Origin: Dehalococcoidia bacterium
Lineage (GTDB): Bacteria; Chloroflexota; Dehalococcoidia; CAUJGQ01
DNA length: 64,000 bases
Assembly: GCA_035310145.1 (NCBI GenBank)
Contig: DATGEL010000120.1
Span: 21,479-85,478, forward strand
Reading direction: 5' to 3'
Shown: piece by piece, positions 5,137-51,943 of the stretch
Numbering within the stretch: the first letter of the stretch is position 1
Layout: every line of letters begins with the position of its first letter
The notes under the pieces: model-generated
What the model was told of the DNA's origin: nothing
The model's input: the letters and a program-made list of their open reading frames with translations, nothing else
Databases searched by the model: none
Position numbers and translations under genes: made by a program

Positions 5137-5170
5137 CAGGGGCGTTGCCGCAAGCGGCACGGAGAGAGGC

Positions 5171-5596: not shown

Positions 5597-5606
5597 ATCC
5601 AGCCAG

Positions 5607-6686: not shown

Positions 6687-6689
6687 GCC

Positions 6690-8162: not shown

Positions 8163-8348
8163 ACTGTCTTGCTCCACGCGCCCGGCCGGCGGGCGCCGCC
8201 AACAACTGCTTGCAACTGCATTATCCCGTCCGCCGATCGCGAGAGGCAATTCAGACCGGTTTTTCATAGCTTCCCTCCTTCCCCCTATCCATTTCATGGA
8301 GAGGGGGCCAGGGGGCGAGGCCAGGCGGGATGCTACACTGGCGCCGCG

Positions 8349-8732
8349 ATGAATCAGCCGCATGGCGACCTGGCCGCGGCCATGCGCCGGGCGATCGAGC
8401 AGTTCAATGCCGGCGAGTTCTGGGAGTGCCACGAGACGCTCGAAGACTTCTGGGGCGCGGAGCAGGGACCGCTTCGCGAGTTCCTGCACGGCTTCATCCA
8501 GGTCGCGGCGGGCTTCGTGCATGTGCAGCGGCTGAACTGGCCCGGCGCCGTGCGGCTGCTGGGCGAGGGGTCGGCGAAACTGGAGCCGTTCCGGCCGGCG
8601 CGCCTCGGCCTGGACGTCGCGGCCCTGCTCGACGCCGTGGCCGATTGGCGGCGCGAGCTGGCGCGGCTCGGCCCCGCGGCGATGCGCGAGGTCTTGCGGC
8701 TGCCGTTTCCGCGAGCACAGCTTGTCGTCTGA
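8349..8732 (+). CDS. DUF309 domain protein
   Basis: 127 aa; FWECHETLEDFWG motif characteristic of DUF309. Confidence 0.6.
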   Translation: MNQPHGDLAAAMRRAIEQFNAGEFWECHETLEDFWGAEQGPLREFLHGFIQVAAGFVHVQRLNWPGAVRLLGEGSAKLEPFRPARLGLDVAALLDAVADWRRELARLGPAAMREVLRLPFPRAQLVV

Positions 8733-8790
8733 GTGCGCGGCTGCCGGCAAGCGGCCTCACCCGCCGCAACCAGGCGGAGGGAGATTGGGT

Positions 8791-9684
8791 GTGAGCGATC
8801 CGGCCTTCCGCGACGGCTTTGTGAACGTCGCCGGCGTGCGGCTGCATTACGTGGACTGGGGTGGCGATGGGCCGTCGGCGCTGCTGTTGCATCCCACCGG
8901 CTTCCACGCGCACATCTGGGAGCCGTACGTGCGCAGGCTGCGCCCGCGCTTCCACTGCTTCGGCCTCGACGCCCGCGGCCACGGCGACAGCGACAAGCCC
9001 GGCTCCTACGGCTGGCCCGACTTCCAGAACGATCTGATCGGCGTCATGCGCGCCCTGGAGCTGCGCGGCGTGCTCGCTATCGGCCATTCGGCCGGCGGCA
9101 CGATGATCGCGCTGGCCGCCGCCGAGGAGCCGGAGCTGATCGAGCGCGCGGTGCTCATCGACCCGATCCTCTTCTTCGAAGACACGCCGCAGCCCGCGCC
9201 CAGCGACAACGGCCTCAGCGTCGGCGCCCGCAAACGGCGCATGAACTGGCCGTCGCGCGCGGCGATGCTGCACAGCTACGCTTCACGCCCGCCGTTCAAC
9301 CGCTGGCAGCGTGAGTTCCTCGAGCACTATGTCAAGTTCGGCGTGCGCGACGAGCCGGACGGTTCGGTCACGCTCAAGTGCGACGGCGCGGACGAGGCCG
9401 AGATGTACCGCTGGGGTCCGCGCCGCCTGCCCGGCGAGCTGGTGCTGCCGCGGGTGAGTTGTCCCGCGCTGCTCGTCGCCGGTGCGGAGAGCGAGGCGTT
9501 TCCACGCACGAAGGTCGAGCGCGCCGCGAGCCTGCTTGCCAACGTCGATCGGCTGACCGTACCGGAGACGGGGCATTTTGCGCCCTTCGAGCAGCCCGCG
9601 ATCGTGCTGGACGCGATCGATGGCTTCATCGCCCGTACGGACCAGGCGAAGGCCGGCCGCGCCGCCCAGAGTCAGCGCAGATGA
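8791..9684 (+). CDS. alpha/beta hydrolase fold protein
   Basis: GTG start after GGAGGGA; HPTGFHAH..GHSAGG nucleophile elbow; stop overlaps dut start (ATGA). Confidence 0.7.
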   Translation: MSDPAFRDGFVNVAGVRLHYVDWGGDGPSALLLHPTGFHAHIWEPYVRRLRPRFHCFGLDARGHGDSDKPGSYGWPDFQNDLIGVMRALELRGVLAIGHSAGGTMIALAAAEEPELIERAVLIDPILFFEDTPQPAPSDNGLSVGARKRRMNWPSRAAMLHSYASRPPFNRWQREFLEHYVKFGVRDEPDGSVTLKCDGADEAEMYRWGPRRLPGELVLPRVSCPALLVAGAESEAFPRTKVERAASLLANVDRLTVPETGHFAPFEQPAIVLDAIDGFIARTDQAKAGRAAQSQRR

Positions 9685-10124
9685 GCGAGCAGATTGCCAT
9701 CCGCTTCGTTTGCCTGAGGGACGGGGCACGGGCGCCGCAGCGCGCGACCGCGGGCGCCACGGGCTATGACGTGTACGCCTGTCTGCCAGGTGGCGGCTTC
9801 ATCGATGTGGGCGGGGATCCGGTGCGTGTACCGACGGGCATCGCACTCGAGGCGCCGCTCGGTTGGGACGTGCAGTGCCGGCCACGCTCCGGTCTCTCGG
9901 CGCAGGGTGTGCTTGCCGTGCTCGGCACCGGCGACCCAGATTACCGCGGCGAGATCTTCGTGACGATGTATACCGTTGGCCGGCGGCCGCCGCACCGCGT
10001 GCAGCATGACGACCGCATCGCGCAGCTCGTGGTCGCTCGTGTCGCTGAGGTCGAATGGCAGCAGGTCGCCCAGCTCTCCGCGACGGAGCGTGGCGCCGGC
10101 GGTTATGGCTCGACCGGGCGCTGA
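9681..10124 (+). CDS. dut: dUTP diphosphatase
   Basis: 147 aa; GYDVYA..RSGL..GTGDPDYRGEI motifs. Confidence 0.85.
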   Translation: MSEQIAIRFVCLRDGARAPQRATAGATGYDVYACLPGGGFIDVGGDPVRVPTGIALEAPLGWDVQCRPRSGLSAQGVLAVLGTGDPDYRGEIFVTMYTVGRRPPHRVQHDDRIAQLVVARVAEVEWQQVAQLSATERGAGGYGSTGR

Positions 10125-10315
10125 CCTCTGGCGACGGCTTCGAGCCGCTCGCCCTGCGAGGTGCTTCGTGCCCGGCCACATCGGCATGCCGCCGCTTCTG
10201 GACATCGCGCCGCACGATGGTAATATGCCAGCCAGAGCGCGCCCGGTCGAATCAACTTCGGACCTGGAGTCCGCGGTGCGCCGACGGCAACCACGAGGGC
10301 GAGGGAGGCGTGGCG

Positions 10316-12055
10316 ATGGCAAGTGGCGAACTGCTTGGCGTTCTGCGGCGGCGGGCAAGCCGGCGGGCGGCGATGCGCGGAGCGGCGCTGAGCAGCGCGG
10401 GGCTCGCCTTTGCAATCGCCTGCGGCAGCTCCAACAACAACAAGAAGGCCGCAACCACGGCCACGAGCGCCGCGCCCGCACCTTCGGGTGGCACCCCCGC
10501 GCCAGGCGGCGGCAGCGCCGCGGCCTCGCCCGCCGCAGGCTCCTTCAAGCCGGCCCCGGGCGGCAAGCAGGGCGGCGAGTACCGCACCGGCTTCACCGGA
10601 CCGTGGGCCGGAGTGGACCCGCACAACTCCGTGTACGGCGGCTCCGGCCTGGTGCCGATCATCTACAACTACCTGGTGCGCACCTCCACGATTGCGCCCG
10701 ACATCGGCATCCTGCCGGAGCTGGCGACCGCCTGGGAATCGGCGCCGGATAATCTCTCGGTCACGTTCAAGCTGCGCCCGAACGCGATGATCGCGGAGAA
10801 CAAACAGAACGTGCCCGTGCGGCCGATGGACGCGGAAGACGCCAAGGCCTCGTTTGAGCGCGTGGCCGACCCGAAGGCCGCCTCGAACGGCTATTCGTGG
10901 ATTCACGACTGGGTCGATCACTTCGAAGCGGTCGACAAGACCACCTTCAAGGTGGTCACCAAGGCGCCGTACGCCTGGGTGCTGAACAACGTGGGCAACA
11001 ACCTCTATTCCGCCGTGGTGCCGAAGGAGTGGTTGCTCAGCCCTGACCTGAAGAAAACCGCGGTCGGCAGCGGGCCGTTCATGCTCCAGAGTTTGGAAGA
11101 GGGCGGCAAGGCGATCGTCGTCCGCAACCACACCTACTGGGAGCCGGGCCTGCCGTTGCTGAACCAGATCACCGGCAACTCCTTCGCCGATCAGGCGACC
11201 TACCGTACGGCGTTCACGTCCAAGCAGATCGACGTCTACGGCGCTACCGACGTGGAAGAAGCGAAGGCGATCGCCGGCAGCCTCAAAGGCAGCCAGCGCT
11301 ACGAGGATCCGGGTTTCGGCTTCAACTCGTTCTGGATGAACGTCACGCAAAAGCCGTGGGACGACCCGCGCATCCGCAAGGCGGTGCGCCGCGCGATCAA
11401 CCCGGACGAATACATCCAGTTGATCGCCAAGGGCCTCGGCAAGCAGATCGGGCCGCTCAGCTATGCGATGAAAGGCTACACGCTGCCGGACGACGAGCTG
11501 AAGAAGCTGATGCCCTTCAGCATCCAGGACGCCAAGCAGATCCTGCAGGCCGCGGGGCAGCCGAACCTGACCTTCAAGTTCCAGCACCCGACCAGCAGCA
11601 ACGTGGCCGACTACGTGAACATCTTCGTGCGCCAGCTCGCCGCAGCGGGCATCACCGCGCAGCCGGAACCGCAGGACGCCGGCACCTGGGTCGCCGGCTA
11701 TTTCACCAACAAGCTCAGCGCCAGCCTCTCGCTCAACCAGGAGTACGCCAATCCGGACTTCGCCCTGCACTGGTTCACCACCGGCGGCATCACCGGCAAC
11801 AGCCACTACGACACCGGCTTCTCCGACCCCGAAGTCGATGCGGCCGTGAAGAAGGCGGCGGGCACGATCGACGAAACCGCGCGCAAGGCCGCGTACCAGG
11901 ATGCACAGCGGCTGATCATCTCCAAAGACCCGCCGTTCTGGAACTTCTACGGCAGCTACGTCAACATCGTCGTCGGCGGCAACGTGGTGAACTATCCGCA
12001 CGGCATCGGATCGCTCGGCTACTACTACACCAAGAACATCTCGCTGGCGAGCTAG
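10316..12055 (+). CDS. ABC transporter substrate-binding lipoprotein, family 5 (peptide/nickel type)
   Basis: GAGGGAGG SD; N-terminal R-rich signal with lipobox (FAIAC); DppA/OppA-like body. Confidence 0.8.
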   Translation: MASGELLGVLRRRASRRAAMRGAALSSAGLAFAIACGSSNNNKKAATTATSAAPAPSGGTPAPGGGSAAASPAAGSFKPAPGGKQGGEYRTGFTGPWAGVDPHNSVYGGSGLVPIIYNYLVRTSTIAPDIGILPELATAWESAPDNLSVTFKLRPNAMIAENKQNVPVRPMDAEDAKASFERVADPKAASNGYSWIHDWVDHFEAVDKTTFKVVTKAPYAWVLNNVGNNLYSAVVPKEWLLSPDLKKTAVGSGPFMLQSLEEGGKAIVVRNHTYWEPGLPLLNQITGNSFADQATYRTAFTSKQIDVYGATDVEEAKAIAGSLKGSQRYEDPGFGFNSFWMNVTQKPWDDPRIRKAVRRAINPDEYIQLIAKGLGKQIGPLSYAMKGYTLPDDELKKLMPFSIQDAKQILQAAGQPNLTFKFQHPTSSNVADYVNIFVRQLAAAGITAQPEPQDAGTWVAGYFTNKLSASLSLNQEYANPDFALHWFTTGGITGNSHYDTGFSDPEVDAAVKKAAGTIDETARKAAYQDAQRLIISKDPPFWNFYGSYVNIVVGGNVVNYPHGIGSLGYYYTKNISLAS

Positions 12056-38439: not shown

Positions 38440-38888
38440 TCGTTGATCGTACGACTGTTGTCTTCTTCGACGCATCAGCGCTCTTTGCGGCAGCACTCTC
38501 ACCGACCGGCGGTGCAGCTCTGATCCTCAGCGTCTGCGAGCGGGGACTACTCATCGGCACGGCTTCTCAGGGAGTGCTCGATGAGACCGAGCGCGATCTT
38601 GAGAATAAGCGACCGGGTCCGGCCTGGTATCGACTCTCCCAGCGGATTACCAGCGGTGCAATTCGCGTACCCACTGAGCCGACTGGCGGCGGCGAGTACC
38701 CGGCCATCAACCAAAAAGACGCTCATGTCTACGCAGCAGCCGTCGCCGCAGGCAGTGATTACCTCATAACTCTCGATAGAGGGCTGATAAGGGAAGCAAA
38801 TACGGCTGCGAAGAGACCGCTGGCGCTATTGCCAGGAGATTTCATCACGAAGCATCTTAAACTCCATCCCGACTACGAGGACATGTAG
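38436..38888 (+). CDS. PIN domain ribonuclease, putative toxin
   Basis: Conserved acidic residues (FFDASAL, ..DAHVYAAA.., ..LDRGL..). Confidence 0.7.
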   Translation: MIVDRTTVVFFDASALFAAALSPTGGAALILSVCERGLLIGTASQGVLDETERDLENKRPGPAWYRLSQRITSGAIRVPTEPTGGGEYPAINQKDAHVYAAAVAAGSDYLITLDRGLIREANTAAKRPLALLPGDFITKHLKLHPDYEDM

Positions 38889-38973
38889 CGCGGCGCAGCC
38901 TCCCGTTGGCAAATGCGGAGGCGAGCGAACCCGTAGTCGATCGGCTTCGCCCGCCTCCTCACTGCCCGTCTGC

Positions 38974-40008
38974 TTATGCTCTCGCGGCGACGCCTGCCAG
39001 CGGGCGGCCGAGGGCGTTGCCGATGCGTCCCAGGCTCTCCATCGTCCTGCAAAAACTCTCGAAGGTGAGCGACTGGGCGCCGTCGCTGAGCGCGTGGTCG
39101 GGATTGGGGTGCACTTCGATGATCACGCCGTCCGCGCCGGCGGCCACCGAAGCCTTCGCCATCGGCTCGACCAGGTACCACTTGCCCGTGCCGTGGCTGG
39201 GGTCACCGATGATCGGCAGGTGCGAGAGCCGTTTGATCAGCGGGATCGCGCTCACGTCCATCGTGTTGCGCGTCGCCGTCTCGAAGGTGCGGATGCCGCG
39301 CTCGCAGAGCATCACCTGGCGGTTGCCCTGGGCGATGATGTACTCGGCGCAGAGCAGCCACTCCTGGATTTCGCCGGAAAGGCCGCGTTTCAGCATCACC
39401 GGCTTCTGCGCGCGGCCGCACTCTTCCAGCAGGTAATAGTTCTGCATGTTGCGGGCGCCGATCTGGAGGATGTCGGCGTACTGCGCGACGAGATCGACGT
39501 CCTCTGGCGTCATCACCTCGGTGATCACGGGCATGCCCGTCTCAAGCGACGCGGCCTTGAGCAGCTTCAGACCCTCTTCGCCCAGTCCGCGGAACTGGTA
39601 GGGCGAAGTCCGCGGCTTGAAGGCGCCGCCGCGCAGCACGTGCGCCCCCGCGGCCTTCACGGCGCGCGCCGTGGACATTAACTGCTCCTCGTTCTCGACT
39701 GAGCAGGGGCCGGCGAAGACCACGATCTCGCCGCCGCCGATGCGCACGCCCTTCACCTCAATCACCGTGTCGGGCGGGTTGAACTCGCGCGACGAGAGCT
39801 TGTACGGCTTACTGATCGGTACGACTTCGTCGACGTTGTTCAGCGTCTCGAACATCGGCCGCAGCTCGGGGTAGGTCTTGCCCACCACGCCCACGACGGT
39901 GCGTTCGGCGCCCTCGATCAGGTGACTGCCGAGTCCCAATTCCTCGATGCGCGCGACGACATGATCGATGTCCTCACGCGTCGCCTCCTGTTTCATGACG
40001 ACGATCAT
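38974..40008 (-). CDS. aroF: 3-deoxy-7-phosphoheptulonate (DAHP) synthase, class I-beta with N-terminal regulatory domain
   Basis: ATG 40008 after GAGGAGG; KDO8P/DAHP synthase family core (..[21 protein letters not shown]..). Confidence 0.85.
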
Positions 40009-40141
40009 CTCGAGCCTCCTCGCCTCCCCGTGCAGGCCGCCGCTGCGTGCCCTCACGGGCCGTGCGAGCCTGAATTCCATCAGCTTGATGCGGCGCCGCG
40101 ACGCCGCGTCTGCCTATCTGTATGAACGCGAAAGTTCCGCG

Positions 40142-40516
40142 CTACTGCAGGCGGGCCACCAGGTCGGGACGCAGGACGCGGGCGCCGCGGATGTAGACGT
40201 GCGTCACTTCGCGCGCCGACTTCTCGGTGTTGACGTGCAGCAGGATGCGCAGGCACATGCCGAGGCTGCCGGGCACGTCCAGCTCGTGCGCGCAGACGAG
40301 CGGCACTTCCGTCCAGCCCATACGCCGCGCGGCCACGGCCGGAAACTCGGCGTTGAGATCCGTGGTCGTGGTGAAGAGCGCGCTGGCCACGTCGTCTGGA
40401 TCGATGCCGTTGCGCTCGATCATGAGCTGCAACAGCTCGGTGGTCGCGGCCAGGATCTCGTCGCGTGCGTTGCGTTCGACCGTGGTGGCGCCCTTGATGC
40501 CGCGGCATACCGTCAT
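40142..40516 (-). CDS. aroH: chorismate mutase, AroH class
   Basis: 124 aa, near full-length match to monofunctional AroH (..RGIKGATTVERN..RVLRPDL..). Confidence 0.85.
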   Translation of the reverse strand: MTVCRGIKGATTVERNARDEILAATTELLQLMIERNGIDPDDVASALFTTTTDLNAEFPAVAARRMGWTEVPLVCAHELDVPGSLGMCLRILLHVNTEKSAREVTHVYIRGARVLRPDLVARLQ

Positions 40517-40658
40517 GAACCCGCCCCTGTGCAGCGTCGGTGCAGTGTGCGCCGTGCGTCAGGCAGGTCCAAAGACGCCGGCCGCGGAGGCGTCAGCGTA
40601 GGCGCGGCCGGCAGAACCCATGAGCGCCCGCGGCGCCCGGCTCTGCACGGCCGGAACC

Positions 40659-41456
40659 TCAGCTCCTCCTGCGACCGGTGACGACCTCCACATACTCCCG
40701 AACCTTAGCCACGCGCTCGTGAGGCGCAGCGTTATCGATCTGATCGATAATTGCGCTGCCGATGACAGCAGCTTCGCACAGTTGCCCGATGCGCGCAACG
40801 TGCTCCGGCCGCGAGACGCCAAAACCCACTGCGAGCGGTAAACGGATCTGTTCGCGTACGCGGGCGATGAACGCCGGCAGTTCCGCCGGCAGATCGCCGC
40901 GCGCCCCTGTTGTGCCGGCGACGCTGACGCAGTAGACGAAGCCGCTGGCCGCCTTCGCCACGGCGGCAAGGCGATCGGCGCTGCTGGTCGGCGCGACGAG
41001 AAAGATCAGGTCGAGCTCCAGCGGCCGCGTGACCGCCAGGAACTCCTCGGCCTCTTCCGGCGGCAGGTCCACGGCGATGAACCCGTCGATGCCGGCTTCC
41101 GCCGCGGCTCTGGCGAAGGTCTTGAGGCCCGCGGCAAGCCAGGGGTTGTAGTAACCCATCAGCAGCAGCGGCAGCGTCAGACCGCGCTCGCGCAGCCGCC
41201 GCGCCACGTCCAGGCAGGTCCAGGGCGTGACACCCTGCCCCAGCGCCTGCCAGCCGGCGCGCTGGATCGTGGCGCCGTCCGCCAGCGGATCGGAGAAGGG
41301 CACGCCCAGCTCGATCGCGTCCGCGCCGCCCGCGGCCAGCGCCTCTACCAGCTCGACGGTGCTGGCAACGTCTGGATAGCCCGCCGTGATGAATGCCACC
41401 AGCCCGGTGCGGCCCTCGGCCTTCAGCCGCGCGAACGTCGCGGCGATGCGGCTCAT
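40659..41456 (-). CDS. trpA: tryptophan synthase alpha chain
   Basis: GGAGGGG SD; ..GLVAFITAGYPD..IELGVPFSDPLADG.. Confidence 0.9.
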   Translation of the reverse strand: MSRIAATFARLKAEGRTGLVAFITAGYPDVASTVELVEALAAGGADAIELGVPFSDPLADGATIQRAGWQALGQGVTPWTCLDVARRLRERGLTLPLLLMGYYNPWLAAGLKTFARAAAEAGIDGFIAVDLPPEEAEEFLAVTRPLELDLIFLVAPTSSADRLAAVAKAASGFVYCVSVAGTTGARGDLPAELPAFIARVREQIRLPLAVGFGVSRPEHVARIGQLCEAAVIGSAIIDQIDNAAPHERVAKVREYVEVVTGRRRS

Positions 41457-41489
41457 CGATTTCCCCTCCATCACACGGTCGCGCGGGCC

Positions 41490-42242
41490 TCATTTGCCGG
41501 CGAAGGCGATCACAACGCTGACGAGATTGAACAGGCAGTGGGCGCCGATGTTTGCCCAGAGCGTGCCGGCGCGGTAGTAGGTCCAGGCGAGGATCACGCC
41601 GATCACGGTGAAGGGAATGATCAGCGTGCCCTGCTGGTGCGCCAGCGCAAACAGCAGGCCGCTGAGCGAGGCTGCGCCGCTGAAGCCGAGGCGCCGGCGC
41701 AGCCCGTTGAAGATGAAGCCGCGGAAGAACGTCTCCTCCACGATCGGCGCCGCGATCACGGTCAGGAGCGTGGCCAGGGGGATCGTCGCGGCGTGCTCAA
41801 AGATGCCTTGCGGCACATTGTCCTGCGGATAGAGCCAGTGCAGGCCCGGAATCTGCGTGAGGCCGATGTAGCCGAACAGCGCCACATAGGCCAGCACCCA
41901 CGCCGCGAACGTCCATCCGGCCCAGCGGCCCGGCGGCCGCCAGCGGTAGCCCAGCAGGCCGAGCCCGCCGGGGAAGCGGCCGACGCTGAAGCTGAGGGCC
42001 ACGCCGAACAGCGCGGCTTCGAACAGCAGCGTCAGCAGCAGGCTGAGCACGAGGCCGTTGACGGAGTCGGTCGCCGTGCCCGTGCCGCTGACGATGATCG
42101 CAAGGGCTAGGCCCAGCAGCAGGAAGGCGGCAATCACCGCGCCCACCCCCGCCAGGCACTGGCGCCAGTCCCACGGCGGCAGCGGCAACTCGCCGTCGCG
42201 CGGCCGCGGCGCGGGCGTTGGGTCGGATGAATCCTCGCTCAC
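41490..42242 (-). CDS. CPBP (CAAX protease/Abi) family intramembrane metalloprotease
   Basis: GTG start 8 nt after trpB stop; EETFFRG..FALAH..TL.. CPBP motifs; sits between trpB and trpA. Confidence 0.65.
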   Translation of the reverse strand: MSEDSSDPTPAPRPRDGELPLPPWDWRQCLAGVGAVIAAFLLLGLALAIIVSGTGTATDSVNGLVLSLLLTLLFEAALFGVALSFSVGRFPGGLGLLGYRWRPPGRWAGWTFAAWVLAYVALFGYIGLTQIPGLHWLYPQDNVPQGIFEHAATIPLATLLTVIAAPIVEETFFRGFIFNGLRRRLGFSGAASLSGLLFALAHQQGTLIIPFTVIGVILAWTYYRAGTLWANIGAHCLFNLVSVVIAFAGK

Positions 42243-42250
42243 GCCGTGCC

Positions 42251-43459
42251 TCACAGCGGCAGACCGAGGGCGGTGGAGACCGTGTCCATGTCCTTGTCGC
42301 CGCGGCCGGAAAGGTTCACCAGCACGATCTGCTCGCGGGCAAGCGCGGGCGCCAGCTTCGCGGCGTAGGCCAGCGCGTGCGACGATTCGAGCGCCGGAAT
42401 GATGCCCTCCGTGCGGCACAGCATCTGGAAGCCTGCCAGCGCCTCGGCGTCGGTGATCGAAACATACTCCGCCCGGCCCGTGTCCTTATAAAAGCTGTGC
42501 TCCGGGCCGACGCCGGGATAGTCCAGGCCGGCAGAGATGCTGTGTGTCTCCGTGATCTGACCGTTCGCGTCCTGCAAGAGATACGAGCGGGCGCCGTGCA
42601 GCACGCCCGGCCGGCCGGCGACCAGGGTGGCCGCATGCTTGCCCGTCTCGATGCCGCTGCCCGCGGCCTCGACGCCGACGAAGCGCACCGTGCGGTCCTC
42701 GTAGAAGGGATGGAAGAGGCCGATCGCGTTGCTGCCGCCGCCCACGCAGGCCACCGCGTAGTCGGGCAGCCGCCCTGCGGCCGCCAGGATCTGCTCGCGT
42801 GCCTCGCGGCCGATCACCGACTGCAGGTCACGCACCATCACGGGATACGGGTGCGGGCCGGCGGCGGTGCCGAGCAGGTAATACGTGGTGGCGACGTTGG
42901 TCACCCAGTCGCGCATCGCCTCGTTGATTGCGTCCTTCAGTGTGCGGCTGCCCGTCGTCACCGGGCGCACCTCGGCGCCAAGCAGTTTCATGCGCGCCAC
43001 GTTGGGCGCCTGGCGGTGAATGTCCTGCTCGCCCATGTAGACCACGCAGTCGAGGCCGAGCATGGCACAGACGGTGGCCGTGGCGACACCGTGCTGACCG
43101 GCGCCCGTCTCGGCGATCACGCGCTGCTTGCCCATGCGCTTCGCCAACAAGCCCTGCCCCAGCGCGTTGTTGATCTTGTGGGCGCCGGTGTGCGCCAGGT
43201 CCTCACGCTTCAAAAAGATCCGCGCCCCACCGAGGCGGTGAGTAAACGACTCGGCGAAGTAGAGCGGCGTCGGCCGGCCGACGTAGGTACGCAGCAGGTG
43301 CGCAAGCTCCTGGCGGAACGTCTCATCCCGCGAGAACTCGCCGTATGCCCGCTCCAGCTCAATCACGGCCGACATCAGAGTCTCGGGCACGAAGCGCCCA
43401 CCAAACTCGCCAAAGCGCCCGCGCTCGTCGGGCCGTGCGCTGTCAGGGGTTTGAACCAA
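42251..43459 (-). CDS. trpB: tryptophan synthase beta chain
   Basis: TTG start 6 nt after AAGGAG; [16 protein letters not shown].., PLP Lys in ..HTGAHKINN.. Confidence 0.9.
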
Positions 43460-43608
43460 CGGATGCTCCTTGCCGCGGCGGATGAACGTTCGAGTGCGAG
43501 GCCGCCACGGACGAGCCCGCGGTTCCCGGCGGAGCAAGCAGCCGGCGTCCCGGTGCGGCGCCCCGCGCATCGCGCCCGTCCGCGCAACGGGCCGTACACG
43601 TACGGCCG

Positions 43609-44370
43609 CTACCGTCCCTCTGCTGCCGATCGCGCGGCGTCGGCGGCGCGGACGGCGGCGACGAACGCGCGCATCTTCTCTGGATCCTTGGCGCCGTCGC
43701 TCTCGATGCCGCTGCTCACATCGACGCCCCAGGGTCGTACGCAGGCCACCGCCTTGCCCGCGTTCTCCGGCGCCAGACCGCCCGCGAGCAGGAACGGCAG
43801 GCGAGAGCTGATTTCGATCGCGAGTGTCCAATCGAACCGCTGGCCCGTGCCGCCGATCTCGCCGGGTACGGCGGTATCGAGCAGGCAGAGCGCGGCGGTT
43901 CCGGCTTCGGCCGTGTCGAGCGCGGCCTCGGGCGTCAGCTCGGGCCGCACGTGCAGCGCCTTGATCACCGGGCGGCGAATCTCCAGCGCCTGCTCCCAGG
44001 GACCGGTGCCGGAAAGCTGGACCAGGTCGAGTGGCACCGCGGCTGCCACGGCATTGATCAGCGAGGTCGGCTGGTCTCCGAACACGCCGACCACAAGCGG
44101 GCGCCGCTCCGAGAGCGCAAGCGCCAGGGCGGCCACACTCCGCCGGAACCAGGCGCCGGCCGGCACCGCGTCGTGGACAAGCCGCGTCAACGTTCCCGCG
44201 CCGGGGCCGAGCCCTTCCAGCACCCGCCGCGCCTGCTCGACCGTGACGCGCCGGCGGCTGCGTTCAGCGAAGACGAGGCCGATGAAGTCGGCGCCGAGCG
44301 CGGCGGCGAGTTCCGACTGCTCGGCGCTGCGCAGGCCGCAGAGCTTGATGCGGGTGTGCAAGGCGGTCAT
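43609..44370 (-). CDS. trpF: phosphoribosylanthranilate isomerase
   Basis: IKLCGL.. TIM-barrel PRAI. Confidence 0.8.
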
Positions 44371-45206
44371 GCAGGCATGAACTCCCGCATCTTCGCGACC
44401 ACGTCGCTCGCCGTCATCAGCGCCTCACCCACCAGCACCGCGTCCACGCCGAGGGATCGCACTCGCTGCGCCTCGGCCGCGCCGGCAAGGCCGCTCTCGC
44501 TGACCACGACCGTCCGCGCCGGAATCAGCGGGCGCAGGCGTTCTGTTACGTCAACGGACGTATGAAAGGTGCGGAGGTCGCGGTTGTTGATGCCGATCAC
44601 CGCGGCGCCGGCGGCCAGAGCCCGCTCGACCTCGCCCTCGTCGTGGACTTCGACCAGGGCGCTCAGGCCCAACTCCCGAGCCAGCGCCAGCAGTTCGATC
44701 AGGAGCTCATCCGGGAGGATAGCCACGATCAGCAGCACGGCGTCGGCGCCGTAGGCACGCGCCTCGTGCAGATGATACGGGTCGAAGAGGAAATCCTTGC
44801 GCAGCAGCGCCGGCCGGCCGCCGGGGAAGTAGCGGTCGAGCCCAATGCGAATACTCTCCAAGGATTCGAGCGTGCCCAGAAAGTGCGGCGCCTCGGTCAG
44901 CACCGAGATCGCCGCCGCGCCGCCGAGCGTGTAGGCGCGGGCGCGGCTGAGCGGGACGAGGTCGGGGTCGAGGATACCCTTGGCCGGCGACGCCTTCTTG
45001 ATCTCCGCGATCAGCCGCAGCCGTGTGCCGCGCAGGGCGGCGGGGAAGTCCAGCGTCTCCGCGAAGCGCTGCGCCTTGTCCGCGAGCCGAGCGAGCGGCT
45101 CCTCGCGACGTCGGCGGGGCAGCTCCTCACGCTTGGCCGCGACGATCTTGTCGAGGATCGTGCCGGTGACGAGGGTGGAATCCGTGGTCACGACGGTTCG
45201 CCTCAC
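44367..45206 (-). CDS. trpC: indole-3-glycerol phosphate synthase
   Basis: ..LIAEIKKASPAKG..; ATGA overlaps with trpD and trpF. Confidence 0.85.
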   Translation of the reverse strand: MRRTVVTTDSTLVTGTILDKIVAAKREELPRRRREEPLARLADKAQRFAETLDFPAALRGTRLRLIAEIKKASPAKGILDPDLVPLSRARAYTLGGAAAISVLTEAPHFLGTLESLESIRIGLDRYFPGGRPALLRKDFLFDPYHLHEARAYGADAVLLIVAILPDELLIELLALARELGLSALVEVHDEGEVERALAAGAAVIGINNRDLRTFHTSVDVTERLRPLIPARTVVVSESGLAGAAEAQRVRSLGVDAVLVGEALMTASDVVAKMREFMPA

Positions 45207-46231
45207 TCCGTTCCCGGTGCGTGCCGCTGCGAGGCCTCGACGAATCGCTCGGCGGTGCGCCCTGCTTCTCCAGTGTCGATCAGCCTGGCAGCTACGGTCA
45301 CGCCCTCGGCGATGTTCGCCGCCGCGCCGCCGACGATCAGCGCCGCGGCCGCGTTGAGCAGCACGAAATCGCGGATCGGCCCCGGCCGGCCCTCGAAGAC
45401 GGCATGCATCGTTTTCGCGTTGTCGACCGGGGCGCCGCCGTGCACCGCGGCGCGCGGCGCCGGCTCAAGCCCCGCGTCGTTCGGCGTGACGCGGTAGGTC
45501 GCCAGCGTTTCGCCCTTCAGCTCGCAGACCAGCGTAGGGCCGGCCAGCGTCAGCTCATCGATGCCGTCTTCGCCGTGCACGACCAGCGCGTGACGGCAGC
45601 CGAGCCGGCCGAGCACGGCGGCCATCGTCTCCACCAGCTCGGGCCGCGGCACGCCGAGTACCTGCGCCTGCGCCCCGGCCGGGTTGGAGAGCGGGCCGAG
45701 AATGTTGAAGACTGTGCGCACGCCGAGGTCGCGGCGGGTGGGCGCGGCGTGCTTCATTGCCGGGTGAAACGCCTGCGCGAACATGAAGCCGAAGTTGCTC
45801 TCGTCGATGCAGGCGGTCACGCCCTCGGGCGCCAGCTCGATGCGCGCCCCCAGCGCCTCGAGCACGTCGGCGCTGCCGCAGCCGCTGCTCATCGCGCGGT
45901 TGCCGTGCTTGGCCACGCGCACGCCGCCGGCCGCGGCCACGAGCGCCGCTGCCGTCGAGACGTTGAACGAACCGGACCCGTCGCCGCCGGTGCCGCAGGT
46001 GTCGATCAACGGACCGGGATGCTGCACGCGCAGCGCCCGTTCGCGCATGATCCGCGCCATGCCGGCGATCTCGTCCACGGTTTCGCCCCGCAGGCGCAGC
46101 GCCGCCAGCAGGGCGCCCAGTTGTGCGGGTGTGGCTTCGCCGGCCATGACCTCGGACATGACCGCGGCGGCCTCGTCCTCGCTCAGGTGGCGGTCATGAT
46201 TAATCAGCGCATCCAGCGCCTCGCGGATCAT
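45203..46231 (-). CDS. trpD: anthranilate phosphoribosyltransferase
   Basis: ..IDTCGTGGDG..KHGNRA.. motifs. Confidence 0.9.
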   Translation of the reverse strand: MIREALDALINHDRHLSEDEAAAVMSEVMAGEATPAQLGALLAALRLRGETVDEIAGMARIMRERALRVQHPGPLIDTCGTGGDGSGSFNVSTAAALVAAAGGVRVAKHGNRAMSSGCGSADVLEALGARIELAPEGVTACIDESNFGFMFAQAFHPAMKHAAPTRRDLGVRTVFNILGPLSNPAGAQAQVLGVPRPELVETMAAVLGRLGCRHALVVHGEDGIDELTLAGPTLVCELKGETLATYRVTPNDAGLEPAPRAAVHGGAPVDNAKTMHAVFEGRPGPIRDFVLLNAAAALIVGGAAANIAEGVTVAARLIDTGEAGRTAERFVEASQRHAPGTE

Positions 46232-46307
46232 CGCATAGATTCCTCTCTGAATGGGTGCGGCCTACCGGGTCGCGGCGTGCGCCGCGCCGGGCGGGCGCCA
46301 CGCGCCC

Positions 46308-46892
46308 CTAGGCGACCACTGCCGCTTCATCCATCGCCAGGAAGTTCCTCAGCAAGTCCTTGCCGTTCGGCGTCATGATCGATTCCGGGTGAAACTGGAT
46401 GCCCTCGACGGCAAAGCGCCTGTGGCGCACACCCATGATCACGCCGCTCTCGCTGCGGGCGCTGACCTCCAGTTCGTCGGGCACGCTGTGAGGGCTTACG
46501 GCGAGCGAGTGGTAGCGGATCGCCTCCATCGGGTCGGGCAGGCCGGCGAAGACGCCGCGGCCGTCGTGGGAGATGCGCGACAGCTTGCCATGCTTGATCT
46601 CGCCCGCGCCCTCGACCACGCCGCCGAATGCCTCGCCGATGCACTGATGCCCAAGGCAAACGCCGAGCAAGGGCACACGGCCGGCGAAGCGCTTGATCAG
46701 GGCAACGCTGATCCCCGCCTCCTTCGGCGTACACGGACCGGGCGAGATCACGATCCGCACCGGCGCCAGCGCCTCGATCTCGTCAAGCGTCGCCGCGTCG
46801 TTGCGCACGACGTGCACCTCCGCACCCAGCTCGCACAGATACTGGTAGAGGTTGTAGGTGAAGCTGTCGTAGTTGTCGATCAAGAGCAGCAT
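46308..46892 (-). CDS. trpG: anthranilate synthase component II (class I glutamine amidotransferase)
   Basis: [22 protein letters not shown] catalytic triad region. Confidence 0.85.
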
Positions 46893-46912
46893 CGCCGCGT
46901 CCTTGTCCGGCT

Positions 46913-47875
46913 TCAGTTCACGCGCGCGTCTTCCAGCTCGGCCACGATCAGCGCCGCCGTCTGTTCGGGCGTCAGCCCCGTGCTGTCAAGCTTCATGCCG
47001 CGCAGCTCGCCGTTGAGCCGCATGATGGCGTCGAGCTCGGCGCTGCGCTCGCCCATGCGCTGGTCCTCGGGCCGTGCCTGATCGCGCCGCAGCAATTCGT
47101 CCAGCCGCGGCGCCAGCGTCACAAAATAGGTCTCGATCGGGCCGAGCGCCTCCAGCAGTGTGTCCAGCTCCTCGGGCGACTCCAAGACGCCTTCGATCAC
47201 GCAGTCGACGCCCTCGGCCGTAAGGTTTCGGGCCAGCGCCGCCGCGTTGCGCAGGCCAAGGAGAATCTGGCGGCGGGCGGCCCCCGGATCGGAGCCATCC
47301 CAGTCCGGCGGCACGCCGCCGCGCACGAAGATGTCCCAGCCGAGGTAGTCGAGCGCGACCAACGCGCTGCGCTCGCTCTGTTCCGCGACCAGCCGTCCGA
47401 CCGTGCTCTTGCCGGCGCCCGCCGCGCCCGTGATGACAATCACCTTGCCCGCTCGCCCTTCCGGCGGCTCGTCGGCACGCGGCCCCGACGCGATGCCCAG
47501 TGCAGCATGCAGCGCCTCGCTCAGGTCAGCCGGCAGCGCAAGCTCTGTTATGGATGGCAGAGGCACCCACACCGGCACGCCGCTGCCGGGCGATCGGTGG
47601 GGCGCACCCTCCCACCGCGTCACAAGCTGAAGATTGTTCAGCCGCACGCCGCCGTCGGCAGCGCGCTCGTAGAACGTGTCGATGAAGCTCTGCTCCGACA
47701 CGGTGATGCCCAGGGTTTCGGCGAGGAACTCGGCCAGCGCCTCTTCGATCTCGATCGCCTCGCGCAGCGGGACACGGGGCAGCGCCAGACCGACGCCCGC
47801 TTCAGCGCCCTCCTTCTGCAGGAAGAGCAGCGAGGCGCCGTCGCTGATCGCCGCCGTGATCTCGATCTCCGGCAT
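46913..47875 (-). CDS. two-domain protein: N-terminal domain of unknown function plus C-terminal P-loop NTPase/kinase-like domain, embedded in trp operon
   Basis: 320 aa; Walker [18 protein letters not shown], Walker-B-like VDCVIEGV; start overlaps trpE stop (TGATG), ends 20 nt before trpG. Confidence 0.6.
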
Positions 47876-49350
47876 CAGTAGCCCAGGCTCCCGCTGGGCA
47901 GCGCCTCAAGCTGCTGCTCGGCCAGGTCGATGGCGCGGATCAGGGCGCGGGCCTTGCTCAGGCACTCCTGGTGCTCGGCCGTCGGGTCGCTGTCGAAGAC
48001 GATGCCCGCGCCAGCCTGCGTGTAGGCCACGCCGTCCTTCATCACCAGCGTGCGGATCGTGATGCAGGTATCCAAATTGCCGTTGAAGCTGAAGCAGCCG
48101 ACGGCGCCGGCGTAGGGTCCGCGCCGGTCCGGCTCCAGCTCCGCGATGATCTCCATCGCGCGGATCTTCGGCGCACCCGAGACGGTCCCGGCGGGGAAGC
48201 AGGCGCGCAGTGCGTCGTAGGGCGTCAGGTCGTCGCGCAGCTGGCCGGTGACGTGCGAGACCAGGTGCATGACGTGCGAGTAACGCTCGATCTCGAACAT
48301 CTGCGTGACGCGCACGCTGCCCGGCCGCGCCACGCGGCCGACGTCGTTGCGGCCCAGGTCGAGCAGCATCGTGTGCTCGGCCAGCTCCTTTTCATCGTGG
48401 CGCAGCTCTTGCTCCAGCCGCTGGTCCTCCTCGAGATCGTGGCCGCGCGGGCGCGTGCCGGCGATCGGGTGCGTCTCCACCAGCCCATCTTCGACGCGCA
48501 CCAGCATCTCCGGCGAGGCGCCGACGATCTCAAAGTCGCCCAACTCCAGGTAGTACATATAGGGCGAGGGGTTGACCTGGCGCAGGGCGCGGTAGACCTC
48601 GAAGGCGGGCGCCGGTGTGCTGCGCGCCAGCCGCTGCGAGAGCACGCCCTGGATCACGTCGCCGGCGACGACATACTCCTTCGTCGCCAGCACGCTCGCT
48701 TCAAAACCCTCGCGGCCGACGTTGGACTCGACGCGGCCGTTCAGGTGCAACTCGCCTTGAAGGCGCGGTGTGTAACGCAGCGGCTGCTGCAGCCGCTCCA
48801 CGATCTGGTCGATCTTGAACTGCGCCAGGCGGTAGGCGGCGTCGATGTCGCCGTCCAGCCGCACGTGGCTGACGACCTTGATGCGATGCCGCAGGTGGTC
48901 GAAAACGAGGATCGTGTCCACGAACAGCAGCATCGCTTCGGGCAGGCCGAGTTCGTCTGCCTCGGGCACGGGCAGACGTTCAAAGTAGCGGGCCGCCTCG
49001 TATGAGAGATAGCCGACGGCGCCGCCGTCGAACGGCGGCAGATCGCCGACGGCCACGACCTTGAAGCGCGACAGCTCCTCTTCGAGCAGGCGCAGCGGGT
49101 CGATCTCGCAGCCTTCGCCCGGCCCCGTGCGCACGATGCGGTACGGCTCCGTGCCGATGAACGAGTACCGCGAGAGCCGCTCGCCGCCCTCGACGCTTTC
49201 GAGCAAGAAGGAGTGCCGCCCGCGCCGCACCTTGAGGAAGGCGGACACCGGCGTATCGAGGTCGGCCGTCACCTCACGGTAGATCGGCACCAGGTTGCCC
49301 GCGCCCGTGGCGGCCAGCTCGCGCACATCGGCAAGAGAAGGAAAATACAC
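47875..49350 (-). CDS. trpE: anthranilate synthase component I
   Basis: GTG start; ..NLVPIYREV.., chorismate-binding C-terminal domain. Confidence 0.9.
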   Translation of the reverse strand: MYFPSLADVRELAATGAGNLVPIYREVTADLDTPVSAFLKVRRGRHSFLLESVEGGERLSRYSFIGTEPYRIVRTGPGEGCEIDPLRLLEEELSRFKVVAVGDLPPFDGGAVGYLSYEAARYFERLPVPEADELGLPEAMLLFVDTILVFDHLRHRIKVVSHVRLDGDIDAAYRLAQFKIDQIVERLQQPLRYTPRLQGELHLNGRVESNVGREGFEASVLATKEYVVAGDVIQGVLSQRLARSTPAPAFEVYRALRQVNPSPYMYYLELGDFEIVGASPEMLVRVEDGLVETHPIAGTRPRGHDLEEDQRLEQELRHDEKELAEHTMLLDLGRNDVGRVARPGSVRVTQMFEIERYSHVMHLVSHVTGQLRDDLTPYDALRACFPAGTVSGAPKIRAMEIIAELEPDRRGPYAGAVGCFSFNGNLDTCITIRTLVMKDGVAYTQAGAGIVFDSDPTAEHQECLSKARALIRAIDLAEQQLEALPSGSLGY

Positions 49351-49621
49351 GGCAGGACTGCTTTCTGAACAGGTCGGCCCTCACCCTCCCCCGAGGCTTG
49401 CTCCTGCCTCTCCCAATCCTGGGAGAGGGAGGGGAGCTTGGGATCGGGTGGAAGGGAGGAAGACGCCGGGTGTGGCGGCCACTTGTGGGCGAACGGCGGG
49501 CGCCCCTGCAAATCTCCGAAGTAGCCTCGCCTTCAGCCCCGATCGCCCCGTGTCTCGATCTCCCCTTCCCCTGGGATCGGGGCCAGAGGGATGAACCTGG
49601 GGATGGGGGCCACAGGTGACC

Positions 49622-50986
49622 TCAAACCACCGGCACGCCCTTCATCGATTCGGCCACCAGCTCCGCGGGATAGGCGTAGTCCTCCAGCTCGCCGGCGAAG
49701 TAGCGGTCGTAGGCCGACATGTCGAAGTGGCCGTGGCCGCTGAGGTTAAAGAGGATCGCCTTCTCCTCGCCGGTCTCTTTGCAGCGCAGCGCCTCGTCGA
49801 TCGCGGCGCGGATCGCGTGGGAGGTTTCCGGCGCGGCAATGATGCCCTGCGTGCGCGCGAACTGCACCGCCGCGGCGAAGGCGGCCGTCTGGTGCACGGC
49901 GCGGCCCTCGATCGCGCCGTCGTGGTAAAGCTGGCTGATCAACGGCGCCATCGCGTGGTAGCGCAGGCCGCCCGCGTGGATTCCCGGCGGCATGAACGAG
50001 CTGCCCAGCGTGTACATCTTCAGCAGCGGCGTGGTCTTCGCCGTGTCGCCGAAATCGTAGGCGTAGTGGCCGCGGGTCAGGCTGGGGCACGATTCCGGCT
50101 CGACCGCGATGAAGCGCGTCTCCTTCTTGCCCGCCAGCTTGTCGCGCATGAAGGGGAAGGCGAGGCCGGCGTAGTTCGAGCCGCCGCCCACGCAGCCGAT
50201 CACGATGTCCGGATAGTCACCGGCCAGCGCCAGTTGCTTCAGCGCCTCTTCGCCGATCACGGTCTGATGCAGCAGCACGTGGTTGAGCACGCTGCCCAGC
50301 GAGTACTTGGTGTCCTCGCGCGTGGCCGCGTCCTCGACCGCCTCGCTGATCGCGATGCCGAGGCTGCCGGGCGAGTCCGGATCGGCTTCAAGGATCGCGT
50401 TGCCGGCGTGGGTGTCGTGGCTGGGGCTGGCGACCACGTCCGCGCCCCAGACCTGCATCATCGAGCGACGGTACGGCTTCTGGTGATACGAGACCTTGAC
50501 CATGTAGACCTTGAGCTCCAGGCCGAACATGTTGCAGGCCATGGCGAGGGCACTGCCCCACTGGCCGGCGCCGGTCTCCGTGGTCAGGCGCGGGACGCCT
50601 GCCTGCTTGTTGTACCAGGCCTGCGCCACCGCGGTGTTCGACTTGTGCGAGCCGGCCGGGCTCACGCCCTCGTACTTGAAGTAGATGCGCGCCGGCGTGC
50701 CCAGCGCCTGCTCCAGCCGCGTGGCGCGCACCAGCGGCGAGGGGCGCCACAGCTTGTAGACCTCGCGGATGTCGTCAGGGATATCGATGTAGCGTTCGCC
50801 GCTGACCTCCTGCTTGATCAGCTCCATCGGGAAGAGCGGCGCCAGCGCCTCCGGCCCGACCGGCTCGTGCGTGCCGGGATGCAGCGGCGGCGCGGGCGGG
50901 TTGGGCAGGTCGGGGATGATGTTGTACCAGCGCTGCGGGATCTCGCTCTCCGGCAACAGGATCTTCGTCTCCGCCATCGTTTGCAC
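49622..50986 (-). CDS. trpB2: TrpB2-type tryptophan synthase beta-like protein
   Basis: ~454 aa; [25 protein letters not shown].. TrpB2 N-terminus; PLP Lys in ..GSHKSNTAV..; GTG 50986 after GGAGG (alternative ATG 50977). Confidence 0.85.
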
Positions 50987-51060
50987 CGGCCGCCTCCTTC
51001 GCCTGCGCTCGCAGGCCCGATCCAGCCGCACGGGCCAACCGCCCGGCCCGTCGCGGCGCA

Positions 51061-51364
51061 TCAAAAAACCCCTCCGCCCCGGCGCTGTATTGCGCCTCGC
51101 AGGGGCGAGGGGATCTCGCGGTGCCACCCTGATTACCGCGTGGAACACGCGGCATCTCTTTGCGGGTACGTCCGCCCGGCAGCGGAGTTACCCTGGGCTC
51201 TGATAACGGCGCCCACCCCGGCGACGCCTACTCCCGCGCGAAGGCGGCTGCCCTCCGCGCCGTTTCGGGCCGCGGCTCACGGGTCCATTCGCGTGGCCTC
51301 ACCCCCCGGCCCCCTCTCCAGGTCTTTCCATCGCGCGGAGCGCGATCTCAGATGGAGAGGGGGG
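51061..51364 (-). promoter_or_regulatory. T-box riboswitch leader (tryptophan; UGG specifier, UGGC discriminator reader) controlling trpB2 and probably the downstream trp/aro operon
   Basis: Minus-strand T-box sequence AAUCAGGGUGGCACCGCGAG (51134-51115, 17/18 to consensus). Antiterminator: A1 CAGGG/CCCUG, 7-nt bulge UGGCACC, A2 GCGAG/CUCGC, loop AUCCC. Competing terminator CCCCUCGCCCC..GGGGCGGAGGGG plus UUUUUU (51068-51063). Stem I 10-bp helix with unpaired ..GAUGGAAAGACC (UGG then A). Confidence 0.7.
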
Positions 51365-51506
51365 ATTGTGCAGGGGTTGTGGGGCCGCACCCGCCTTACG
51401 GCGGGACCGCTGCGCTGGCGCCGGCTCACACCTTCCCCGGCTCTCTGGGCCGCGCTGGCGGCGTACTCTTCCCGATCGTTGCCGTGCCTATGCAGTTGTG
51501 CCGTTG

Positions 51507-51535
51507 ACCGTAGCAGCGGCTTGCGGAAATGTCAA
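51507..51535 (-). promoter_or_regulatory. sigma70-like promoter for the T-box/trpB2 transcript (TTGACA-17-TACGGT)
   Basis: Perfect -35 hexamer with 17-nt spacer to TAcggT, ~100 nt upstream of Stem I. Confidence 0.4.
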
Positions 51536-51571
51536 CCGGCGCAGGGACGCAGCGCAGGCCGCGACGAGACG

Positions 51572-51943
51572 CTACAGGGCGGCCCCGGGCGCGAGCTGCG
51601 CCACCATATTGAGCAGTTCGCTCAGCGTGAACGGCTTTCTGAGCACGCCGTCGGCATCGAGCTGCCGGGCCTTCTGCCGGGCGCTGTTGTCGGCCGTAAG
51701 CACGGCCAGCGCGATCGCGGGCCGCAACCCACGGCGCCGCACTTCCTCGGCGAAGGCGTAGCCGTCCATCCGCGGCATGTTGAGGTCGAGCAAGATCAGT
51801 GCCGGTTGCTCGACCTCCAGCACGGCCAGGGCGTCGAGACCGTCGCTGGCCAGCGCGACGGAGTAGCCCTCATCCTCCAGAATCGCCTGCACCATCGCCT
51901 GCAGGCCCACATCGTCGTCCACCACGAGAATGGTTCCGCTCAT
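51572..51943 (-). CDS. single-domain response regulator (CheY-like receiver)
   Basis: ILVVDDD..D..LILLDLNMP..K receiver residues; start overlaps the upstream kinase stop. Confidence 0.8.
   Translation of the reverse strand: MSGTILVVDDDVGLQAMVQAILEDEGYSVALASDGLDALAVLEVEQPALILLDLNMPRMDGYAFAEEVRRRGLRPAIALAVLTADNSARQKARQLDADGVLRKPFTLSELLNMVAQLAPGAAL

Follow-up and report, generated by a model that had tools for sequence, protein, structure and literature searches.

Few gene clusters have been studied as thoroughly as the trp operon, in which the two anthranilate synthase subunits are normally closely coupled at the trpE-trpG junction, and a conserved gene under selection at this junction is therefore unexpected. 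Such a gene, hereafter referred to as X, is present in a Dehalococcoidia bacterium on a stretch of 64,000 nucleotides (nt) of contig DATGEL010000120.1 (positions 21,479 to 85,478), called here the window. An earlier description made from the letters of this stretch (hereafter the sequence-only reading) had placed a 320-residue open reading frame (ORF) between trpE and trpG, with its start codon overlapping the trpE stop codon in a TGATG motif and its stop codon separated from the ATG of trpG by a gap of 20 nt. The ORF listing and the raw sequence bear out all of these points, and the TGATG junction upholds the translational coupling of X to trpE that was claimed along with them. The features discussed below are collected in Table 1.

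Table 1. Coordinates of gene X, its parts and the neighbouring features in the window (aa, amino acids)
Feature	Coordinates	Strand	Remarks
Gene X, two-domain protein (Nudix-like module and P-loop kinase), 320 aa, ATG start	46913..47875	minus	Stop codon 46913-46915
N-terminal Nudix-fold domain, aa 1-127, degenerate Nudix box	47495..47875	minus	NCBIfam and PDB MutT sequence matches, Foldseek, Pfam NUDIX, profile search
Inter-domain linker, aa 128-143	47447..47494	minus	pLDDT about 53; length varies in family alignment
Predicted C-terminal P-loop small-molecule kinase domain, CPT/BH3686 type, aa 144-320	46916..47446	minus	Pfam CPT, 2bdt match, Foldseek
Walker A GAAGAGKST, aa 150-158	47402..47428	minus	G150, G155 and K156 invariant, S157 nearly so
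Asp176, at the end of beta-2, predicted to bind the acceptor or to act as catalytic base	47348..47350	minus	Invariant; aligns with the Asp of BH3686 'IEGD'
Lid motif R264-D265-x-x-R268, then M-G-x-R277-S	47072..47086	minus	R264, D265 and R268 invariant; same motif in BH3686
TGATG junction	47873..47877	minus	One-base overlap of trpE stop and X start, base 47875 common to both
trpE, anthranilate synthase component I, 491 aa	47875..49350	minus	Chorismate_bind match
trpG, glutamine amidotransferase component II, 194 aa	46308..46892	minus	GATase match; ATG 46890-46892
3' half of putative T-box leader, containing conserved AGGGUGGCACCGCGAG, upstream of trpB2-like gene	51101..51161	minus	Rfam RF00230
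Rce1-like (CPBP-family) membrane protease gene between trpB and trpA	41490-42419	minus

A two-domain protein with a kinase half and a Nudix-like half

The G+C contents at the first, second and third codon positions of X are 0.75, 0.48 and 0.86, respectively, and the flanking trp genes of this genome (69% GC) show the same pattern. Full-length homologues of X were found down to 31% identity, its C-terminal half matches a Pfam family above the gathering cut-off (see below), and the ratio of nonsynonymous to synonymous substitution rates (dN/dS) against an orthologue of 74% identity is 0.23. X is therefore a genuine gene and not a chance ORF of a genome rich in G+C. By parts, the Nudix half has a ratio of 0.19, the kinase half one of 0.24 and the linker one of 0.50, and the gene is under purifying but relaxed selection. 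An AlphaFold model of X, built from 13 family sequences (mean predicted local distance difference test score, pLDDT, 83; predicted TM-score, pTM, 0.73), consists of two domains with a low-confidence linker between them.

The C-terminal domain was assigned to the small-molecule kinases by sequence and structure comparisons. The Pfam model CPT (PF07931) matches residues 143-314 over model positions 1-171 of 172 with 32.2 bits against a gathering cut-off of 22 (E=1e-7), and among the 19 members of the X family the CPT model matches 18 and the AAA_33 model all 19. The structure of BH3686 (PDB 2bdt) was retrieved at E=1e-11 with the single sequence of the domain (phmmer) and at E=1e-28 with the family profile; it is also the closest in the Foldseek comparison given here (TM-score 0.81), along with chloramphenicol phosphotransferase 1qhs (0.75) and TmrD 2vli (0.71). 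Further structural or profile relatives are Atu3015, a gluconate-type sugar kinase and APS kinase. The Walker A loop and the VDCVIEGV motif listed in the sequence-only reading are both present (residues 150-158, nt 47402-47428, and residues 223-230), and its judgement that this half stands nearer to chloramphenicol phosphotransferase and AAA_33 than to shikimate kinase agrees with the E-values obtained (CPT 1e-7 and 2bdt profile 1e-28, versus 0.1 for the Pfam shikimate kinase model SKI). Seven residues, G150, G155, K156, D176, R264, D265 and R268, are invariant across 19 sequences with identities down to 31%, and they align with the same residues of 2bdt. As judged from these alignments, the C-terminal half keeps the complete motif set of an active phosphotransferase; the role of general base for Asp176 is an assumption that we carry over from chloramphenicol phosphotransferase and shikimate kinase.

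The full-length family profile matches about 3,400 cluster representatives (clustered at 50% identity), the majority of which are stand-alone kinases of this type. A scan of species-representative genomes, dominated by generic P-loop patterns, gave at least two distant kinase-only matches. The surroundings of four stand-alone homologues were inspected. One directly follows nadA-nadB-nadC in a Chloroflexi metagenome-assembled genome (L008, 9992-10546), another lies just downstream of aroC-aroK-aroB in Streptomyces ovatisporus (L009, about 9990-10560), a third overlaps the end of miaA on a metagenome contig (L013, 6001-6558) and the fourth (L014) has nothing notable nearby. Three proteins of about 370-390 residues (P0031, P0041 and P0048) carry two BH3686-type kinase domains in tandem, and four further relatives (P0099, P0109, P0135 and P0156) are fusions with GNAT, methyltransferase or DinB-like domains.

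The sequence-only reading had found nothing recognisable in the N-terminal 150 residues or so. This no longer holds, as Foldseek, Pfam NUDIX, profile searches and NCBIfam and PDB sequence matches all place a Nudix fold in this region. With Foldseek, residues 1-127 match MutT (3a6u, TM-score 0.75) and the RNA pyrophosphohydrolase BdRppH (3ees, TM-score 0.81); Pfam NUDIX (PF00293) matches 11 of the 19 family members (best E=1e-11), and the profile of this domain retrieves MutT/NudG-type structures from the PDB at E=9e-13 (about 1e-12), with the Nudix-fold regulator AraR among its matches. Taking the structural model and the sequence matches together, the N-terminal domain has a Nudix fold. Residues conserved in the family are L32-P33, E44, F64, T67, Y69, N81 and W103. 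However, in an alignment to Escherichia coli MutT the Nudix box GX5EX7REUXEEXGU with its metal-binding glutamates is not kept in X, the arginine and the three glutamates of REUxEE are kept together in none of the 50 aligned two-domain members, and the stand-alone and methyltransferase-fused forms described below, when read by eye, are also without the full box. Hydrolase activity of the module is not expected, because the box glutamates are not kept together. The domain is thus predicted to be a catalytically dead Nudix homology domain without pyrophosphate hydrolysis, and an active Nudix hydrolase was ruled out as a candidate, the box being degenerate in all members.

A search of X with the PADLOC models of defence systems gave a sole match, to VakA, over 27 residues of the P-loop only (E=4e-4), and a role as a defence-system component was ruled out on that basis. 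The PADLOC candidate model PDC-S07 weakly matches the Nudix-like modules of two relatives (L038 and P0198, E about 1e-6).

The trpE-trpG gap in related operons

Every two-domain homologue with a visible genomic context lies between trpE and trpG, and these amount to about nine distinct homologues at 15 loci (the window, L001-L007, L010-L012, the contig of P0034, L015 and L016). The two-domain homologues are 31-99% identical to X (36-77% for domain-level tblastn matches), and the TrpE proteins of their loci are 66-96% identical to that of the window. The source labels of the homologues read 'Dehalococcoidia bacterium', and their taxonomy rests on these labels. The overlap of one base between trpE and X recurs in L001-L006, L015 and L016 and is kept in the closer clade. 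Absence of X from the trp operons of close relatives, a possibility raised in the sequence-only reading, was checked, and the close clade does carry the gene at this position.

The wider occurrence of the insert was examined in 80 metagenomic loci retrieved with the TrpE of the window as seed (49-94% identity), in 67 of which trpG is visible downstream. In about 50 of these 67 loci trpE directly abuts trpG, and X is carried only by the two closest relatives among the seeded loci. X is therefore restricted to a lineage, in which it strictly keeps its place between trpE and trpG. It also changes more rapidly than its neighbours: where TrpE is 96, 83 and 69% identical, X is about 75, 43 and 36% identical, respectively (window compared with L001, L004, L015 and L016), and its dN/dS of 0.23 contrasts with values of 0.05-0.09 for TrpE, TrpG and TrpD. 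Overall, X diverges at 3-5 times the rate of the trp enzymes on either side. As most relatives have trpE abutting trpG and X diverges faster than TrpE, the gene appears to be accessory in character.

A search with the profile of the Nudix domain identified at least seven proteins, the stand-alone Nudix-like genes. The module occurs in the same slot of sister operons. In two of these operons the module is fused to a class I S-adenosylmethionine (SAM)-dependent methyltransferase of the UbiE/ArsM small-molecule type (L038, 5481-6743; L026, about 5484-6653), and the fusions share the family motifs F-x-[DE]-T, the conserved Trp and LPxxL. In four others a stand-alone Nudix-like protein of about 131 residues is encoded directly upstream of trpG (L032, 1521-1913; L095, 5001-5396; L096; L097), with trpG following after 7-8 nt in L095-L097. 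A GNAT acetyltransferase gene overlaps the start of the Nudix-like gene by one base in L096 (4516-5396), and the corresponding position in L097 holds only a 52-residue remnant with GNAT similarity. A separate methyltransferase gene occurs between trpE and X in L012 (6200-6979). In L098 (contig_2253, 5001-10807) the Nudix-methyltransferase gene is frameshifted (P0194) and the calls for trpG, trpD and trpC are fragmented, so that this locus looks like a decaying trp operon; a trpF-like gene at its end has a match to the Y1 transposase domain (PF01797). Other inserts found in the slot are short-chain dehydrogenase/reductase (SDR) genes (L027, 5512-7030; L045, 5525-6268; L070), a glyoxalase/VOC-family gene (L046, 5499-5939), trpS (L077) and an ABC ATPase gene (L039).

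The gap between trpE and trpG is thus a hot spot in the sister lineages, with the Nudix-like module as its recurring element; the enzyme partner of the module is interchangeable, and the insert is dispensable in many relatives. Two further small genes were observed between trpG and trpD, namely an 80-residue DUF6290 protein in L095 (6029-6271) and a predicted membrane-anchored protein of 173 residues in L096 (6045-6566), and the idea that the latter represents a split kinase was ruled out on checking.

Operon context and regulation

Besides trpE, X and trpG, the minus-strand cluster of the window holds trpD, trpC, trpF, trpB and trpA together with genes for an AroH-type chorismate mutase and for 3-deoxy-D-arabino-heptulosonate 7-phosphate (DAHP) synthase. 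A trpB2-like gene upstream of trpE is the first gene of the operon; the true start of its listed ORF (49622-51148) is probably internal, near MAETKILL. The Rce1-like gene is kept between trpB and trpA in every related operon that reaches that far (L001, L004, L010 and L011) and constitutes a second conserved non-trp insert of the operon.

The T-box match upstream of the trpB2-like gene scored 33 bits (E=1.5e-5), below the Rfam gathering score, and a stem I and a specifier codon were not identified in it. T-boxes upstream of trpE and trpB-like genes have been reported in Dehalococcoides (PMC2494555). The leader suggests that the operon, including X, may be controlled by uncharged tRNA, and X is likely to be expressed with the operon when the charging of tRNA-Trp is low; since the gene lies inside the operon, is coupled to trpE and has a T-box-like element upstream, it is probably made under tryptophan shortage. 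Promoter-like sites were not found in the scanned region (38500-51700), and the sole terminator-like match inside X is a weak stem of 5 bp. The 271-nt spacer between the trpB2-like gene and trpE (49351-49621, minus strand) contains C/T-rich runs and the inverted repeat ccctctcccaggattgggagagg and has no Rfam match.

Affinities and proposed function of X

Both halves of X belong to known superfamilies, the CPT/BH3686-type kinases and the Nudix clan. BH3686 of Bacillus halodurans (NCBIfam PRK06762 group) is a structural-genomics protein labelled 'putative gluconate kinase', and literature searches found no paper on it. It is homologous to the C-terminal domain of X over its whole length and shares with it the Walker A loop, the Asp after beta-2 and the lid motif RRDxxRxxxxxMGER, but it is a stand-alone protein of about 190 residues without a Nudix-like domain. 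Chloramphenicol 3-O-phosphotransferase, TmrB/TmrD and Gar have the fold and the motif set in common with X, and CPT-type resistance kinases phosphorylate the hydroxyls of small molecules, which is the chemistry proposed here for X. However, X is only about 18-20% identical to these kinases, has an extra N-terminal domain and lies in no evident resistance context; membership of the CPT-like group gives no substrate for X, as its nearest relatives are uncharacterised.

The MutT-type Nudix hydrolases (MutT, NudG/CTP pyrophosphohydrolase and RppH) share the fold and a detectable sequence homology with the N-terminal domain of X and differ from the X family in keeping the box glutamates together. 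A further comparison is with the non-catalytic Nudix-fold ligand-binding modules, such as NrtR, AraR, the C-terminal domain of MutY and the NUDT9-H domain of TRPM2. In these a degenerate box accompanies recognition and not hydrolysis, and the module of X is proposed to work alike; the known examples are fused to DNA-binding, glycosylase or channel domains, whereas the partner here is a kinase, a methyltransferase or none.

Additional genes are found in other trp operons, a chlamydial one carrying prsA and kynU. Insertions of non-trp genes into trp operons are known from the review of Xie et al. (2003), as cited in PMC2395257, and are reported to lie between trpB and trpA, between trpF and trpB, or at the flanks of the operon. 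X resembles such inserts as an extra gene embedded in the operon and presumably co-transcribed with it, and is unlike them in sitting between trpE and trpG. Literature searches found no description of a conserved gene at that position, of a Nudix-kinase fusion or of a modular slot centred on a Nudix domain.

X is tentatively proposed to be an accessory small-molecule phosphotransferase, co-expressed with the trp operon, that would modify a tryptophan-related antimetabolite, inhibitor or side product; this reading is regarded as plausible and as somewhat short of probable. The kinase domain would bind ATP-Mg via the Walker A loop and transfer the gamma-phosphate to the hydroxyl of a small molecule positioned by Asp176, the lid arginines R264 and R268 would stabilise the transition state, and the dead Nudix module would serve in ligand recognition or docking. 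The protein would be produced when the cell senses a shortage of tryptophan, and the outcome would be the covalent modification (inactivation or recycling) of a small molecule related to the tryptophan pathway, as an activity accessory to the biosynthesis and no core step of it. Targeting is ascribed to the Nudix module because it stays constant in the slot while the kinase, SAM methyltransferase or GNAT partner varies. Kinase, methyltransferase, acetyltransferase, SDR and glyoxalase/VOC genes are the usual repertoire of small-molecule inactivation, and the fast evolution and patchy distribution of X fit an accessory role. Catalysis, the small-molecule acceptor, the role of the Nudix module and the physiological purpose of X are what we infer from the locus. 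It is also conceivable, although on balance doubtful, that the dead Nudix module serves the anthranilate synthase step as a dedicated adaptor; it would bind TrpE/TrpG, an inhibitor or a molecule derived from chorismate or anthranilate and offer it to exchangeable group-transfer enzymes.

Several observations weigh against an accessory phosphotransferase of this kind. No substrate or activity is known for any close kinase relative, and the contexts of the stand-alone kinase homologues are inconsistent (nadC, aroB, miaA, nothing particular). The T-box match is partial and falls below the Rfam gathering score. The slot also receives unrelated genes (SDR, glyoxalase/VOC-family, trpS and ABC ATPase), and a part of its contents may be tolerated passengers; that the kinase, the methyltransferase and the acetyltransferase have a common ligand is something we infer from gene order and fusion only.

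X itself may be such a passenger, tolerated in a permissive intergenic hot spot and unrelated to tryptophan, for example a generic xenobiotic kinase. The many unrelated genes in the gap of the relatives, the patchy distribution and fast evolution of X, and the genes of unknown function on record as inserts of trp operons (PMC2395257) all favour this idea. A passenger would, however, be expected in other contexts too, and all occurrences of the two-domain protein and the Nudix-like module in the contexts examined (down to TrpE identities of about 62-66%) were in this slot; the coupling of translation is also conserved, and purifying selection acts on both domains. We consider a passenger unlikely, with a chance that still deserves to be reckoned with. 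Somewhat less credence is given to a regulatory or structural third subunit of anthranilate synthase, in which the Nudix-like module would dock on TrpE/TrpG or sense a nucleotide or ribose-phosphate and the P-loop would act as an ATP-dependent switch. The strict location of X between the two subunit genes and a TGATG coupling that favours synthesis matched to TrpE point in this direction, as do the Nudix-like modules kept alone directly upstream of trpG in L095-L097 and the existence of Nudix-fold ligand sensors without catalysis, of which AraR is among the PDB matches and NrtR is a further case. This proposal rests on gene order and translational coupling, whereas most relatives do without the insert, all phosphotransfer residues of X including Asp176 and the lid arginines are invariant, and the exchange of the kinase for a methyltransferase or a GNAT enzyme resembles enzyme chemistry and not a switch; TrpE moreover retains its own motifs LLES and NPSPYM, which we take to be those of the feedback site.

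The remaining explanations assign X a defined reaction. It might supply an activated co-substrate, either as an L-serine kinase providing O-phospho-L-serine for TrpB2 or as a ribose-phosphate kinase providing phosphoribosyl pyrophosphate (PRPP) for TrpD. The operons of the window, L001-L003, L012, L038 and L096 begin with a trpB2-like gene, and TrpB2 enzymes use O-phospho-L-serine (Busch et al. 2014, as cited in PMC11917138), which would fit the serine kinase. In principle O-acetylserine could come from a GNAT partner, ribose-phosphate compounds are known ligands of Nudix folds, one stand-alone homologue lies directly after nadC, itself the gene of a PRPP-dependent transferase, and the conserved arginines suggest an anionic acceptor. 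But trpB2 is present in many operons without X and missing from the retrieved flanks of L004, L010 and L011, which have X, so that its co-occurrence, when examined, proved not to be specific; O-phosphoserine and PRPP are ordinary metabolites with enzymes of their own, the methyltransferase partner fits neither variant, and the adjacency to nadC is a single case not repeated elsewhere. Supply of a co-substrate is accordingly rated as distinctly improbable. Still more remote is a kinase of the core pathway, whether a non-orthologous shikimate kinase or one acting on another obligatory intermediate of chorismate or tryptophan, as the sequence-only reading had suggested. The P-loop of X resembles that of shikimate kinase, the operon carries DAHP synthase and chorismate mutase, one distant stand-alone homologue lies just downstream of aroC-aroK-aroB in Streptomyces, and AroK was not found in the window or in the related operon loci; in keeping with the sequence-only reading, which saw no shikimate kinase gene in the aro/trp cluster, tblastn of the window with the AroK proteins of E. 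coli and Mycobacterium tuberculosis aligned only the P-loop (19-21 residues). Shikimate kinase is usually unlinked to the trp genes, and the absence of AroK from 64 kb therefore says little. The match to SKI (PF01202) covers only 17 residues of the P-loop (residues 153-169), the NCBIfam shikimate kinase models likewise match the P-loop only, the shikimate-binding GGG motif is not found after beta-3 of X (VIEGVLE), X evolves 3-5 times faster than the pathway enzymes, and the Streptomyces locus already has a canonical AroK beside the homologue. Sister operons that share this set of seven trp genes have a methyltransferase instead of the kinase, hold the Nudix-like module alone or lack the whole insert, and a core step would not be so dispensable. 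Shikimate kinase was ruled out as a candidate on these grounds (P-loop-only model matches, tblastn, a dispensable and replaceable kinase domain), and the pathway-kinase hypothesis as a whole is very unlikely. An equally slight chance is given to an action on RNA, with X as an RppH-like binder of RNA 5' ends joined to a polynucleotide-kinase-like enzyme acting on these or on tRNA-Trp and tied to the T-box and trpS circuitry. BdRppH is among the best structural matches of the Nudix domain, AAA_33, a family that also includes polynucleotide kinases, is matched by all 19 family members, trpS is found within or beside many of the operons, in one case in the slot, and a T-box fragment lies upstream. 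The closest kinase relatives (CPT, BH3686, TmrD and the gluconate and APS kinases) are nevertheless of the small-molecule type, as is the UbiE/ArsM-type methyltransferase partner, and RNA-binding motifs were not identified in X.

The accessory phosphotransferase thus stays the preferred, tentative reading of X. Inserts built around a dead Nudix module with interchangeable partners suggest that a group of abundant but poorly cultured bacteria has a so far unrecognised function linked to tryptophan limitation. They offer a first genomic point of entry to the large family of BH3686-type kinases, of which to our knowledge no member has a known substrate, and a new example of the Nudix fold reused beyond hydrolysis. 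If the inactivation of an antimetabolite proves true, X would show how resistance genes are wired to the sensing of amino-acid starvation. If the Nudix module is instead an adaptor of the anthranilate synthase step, the slot would represent an unrecognised layer of covalent small-molecule proofreading or protection at the first committed step of tryptophan synthesis, for example through the phosphorylation of an inhibitor of anthranilate synthase or TrpRS, or of a leaking intermediate.

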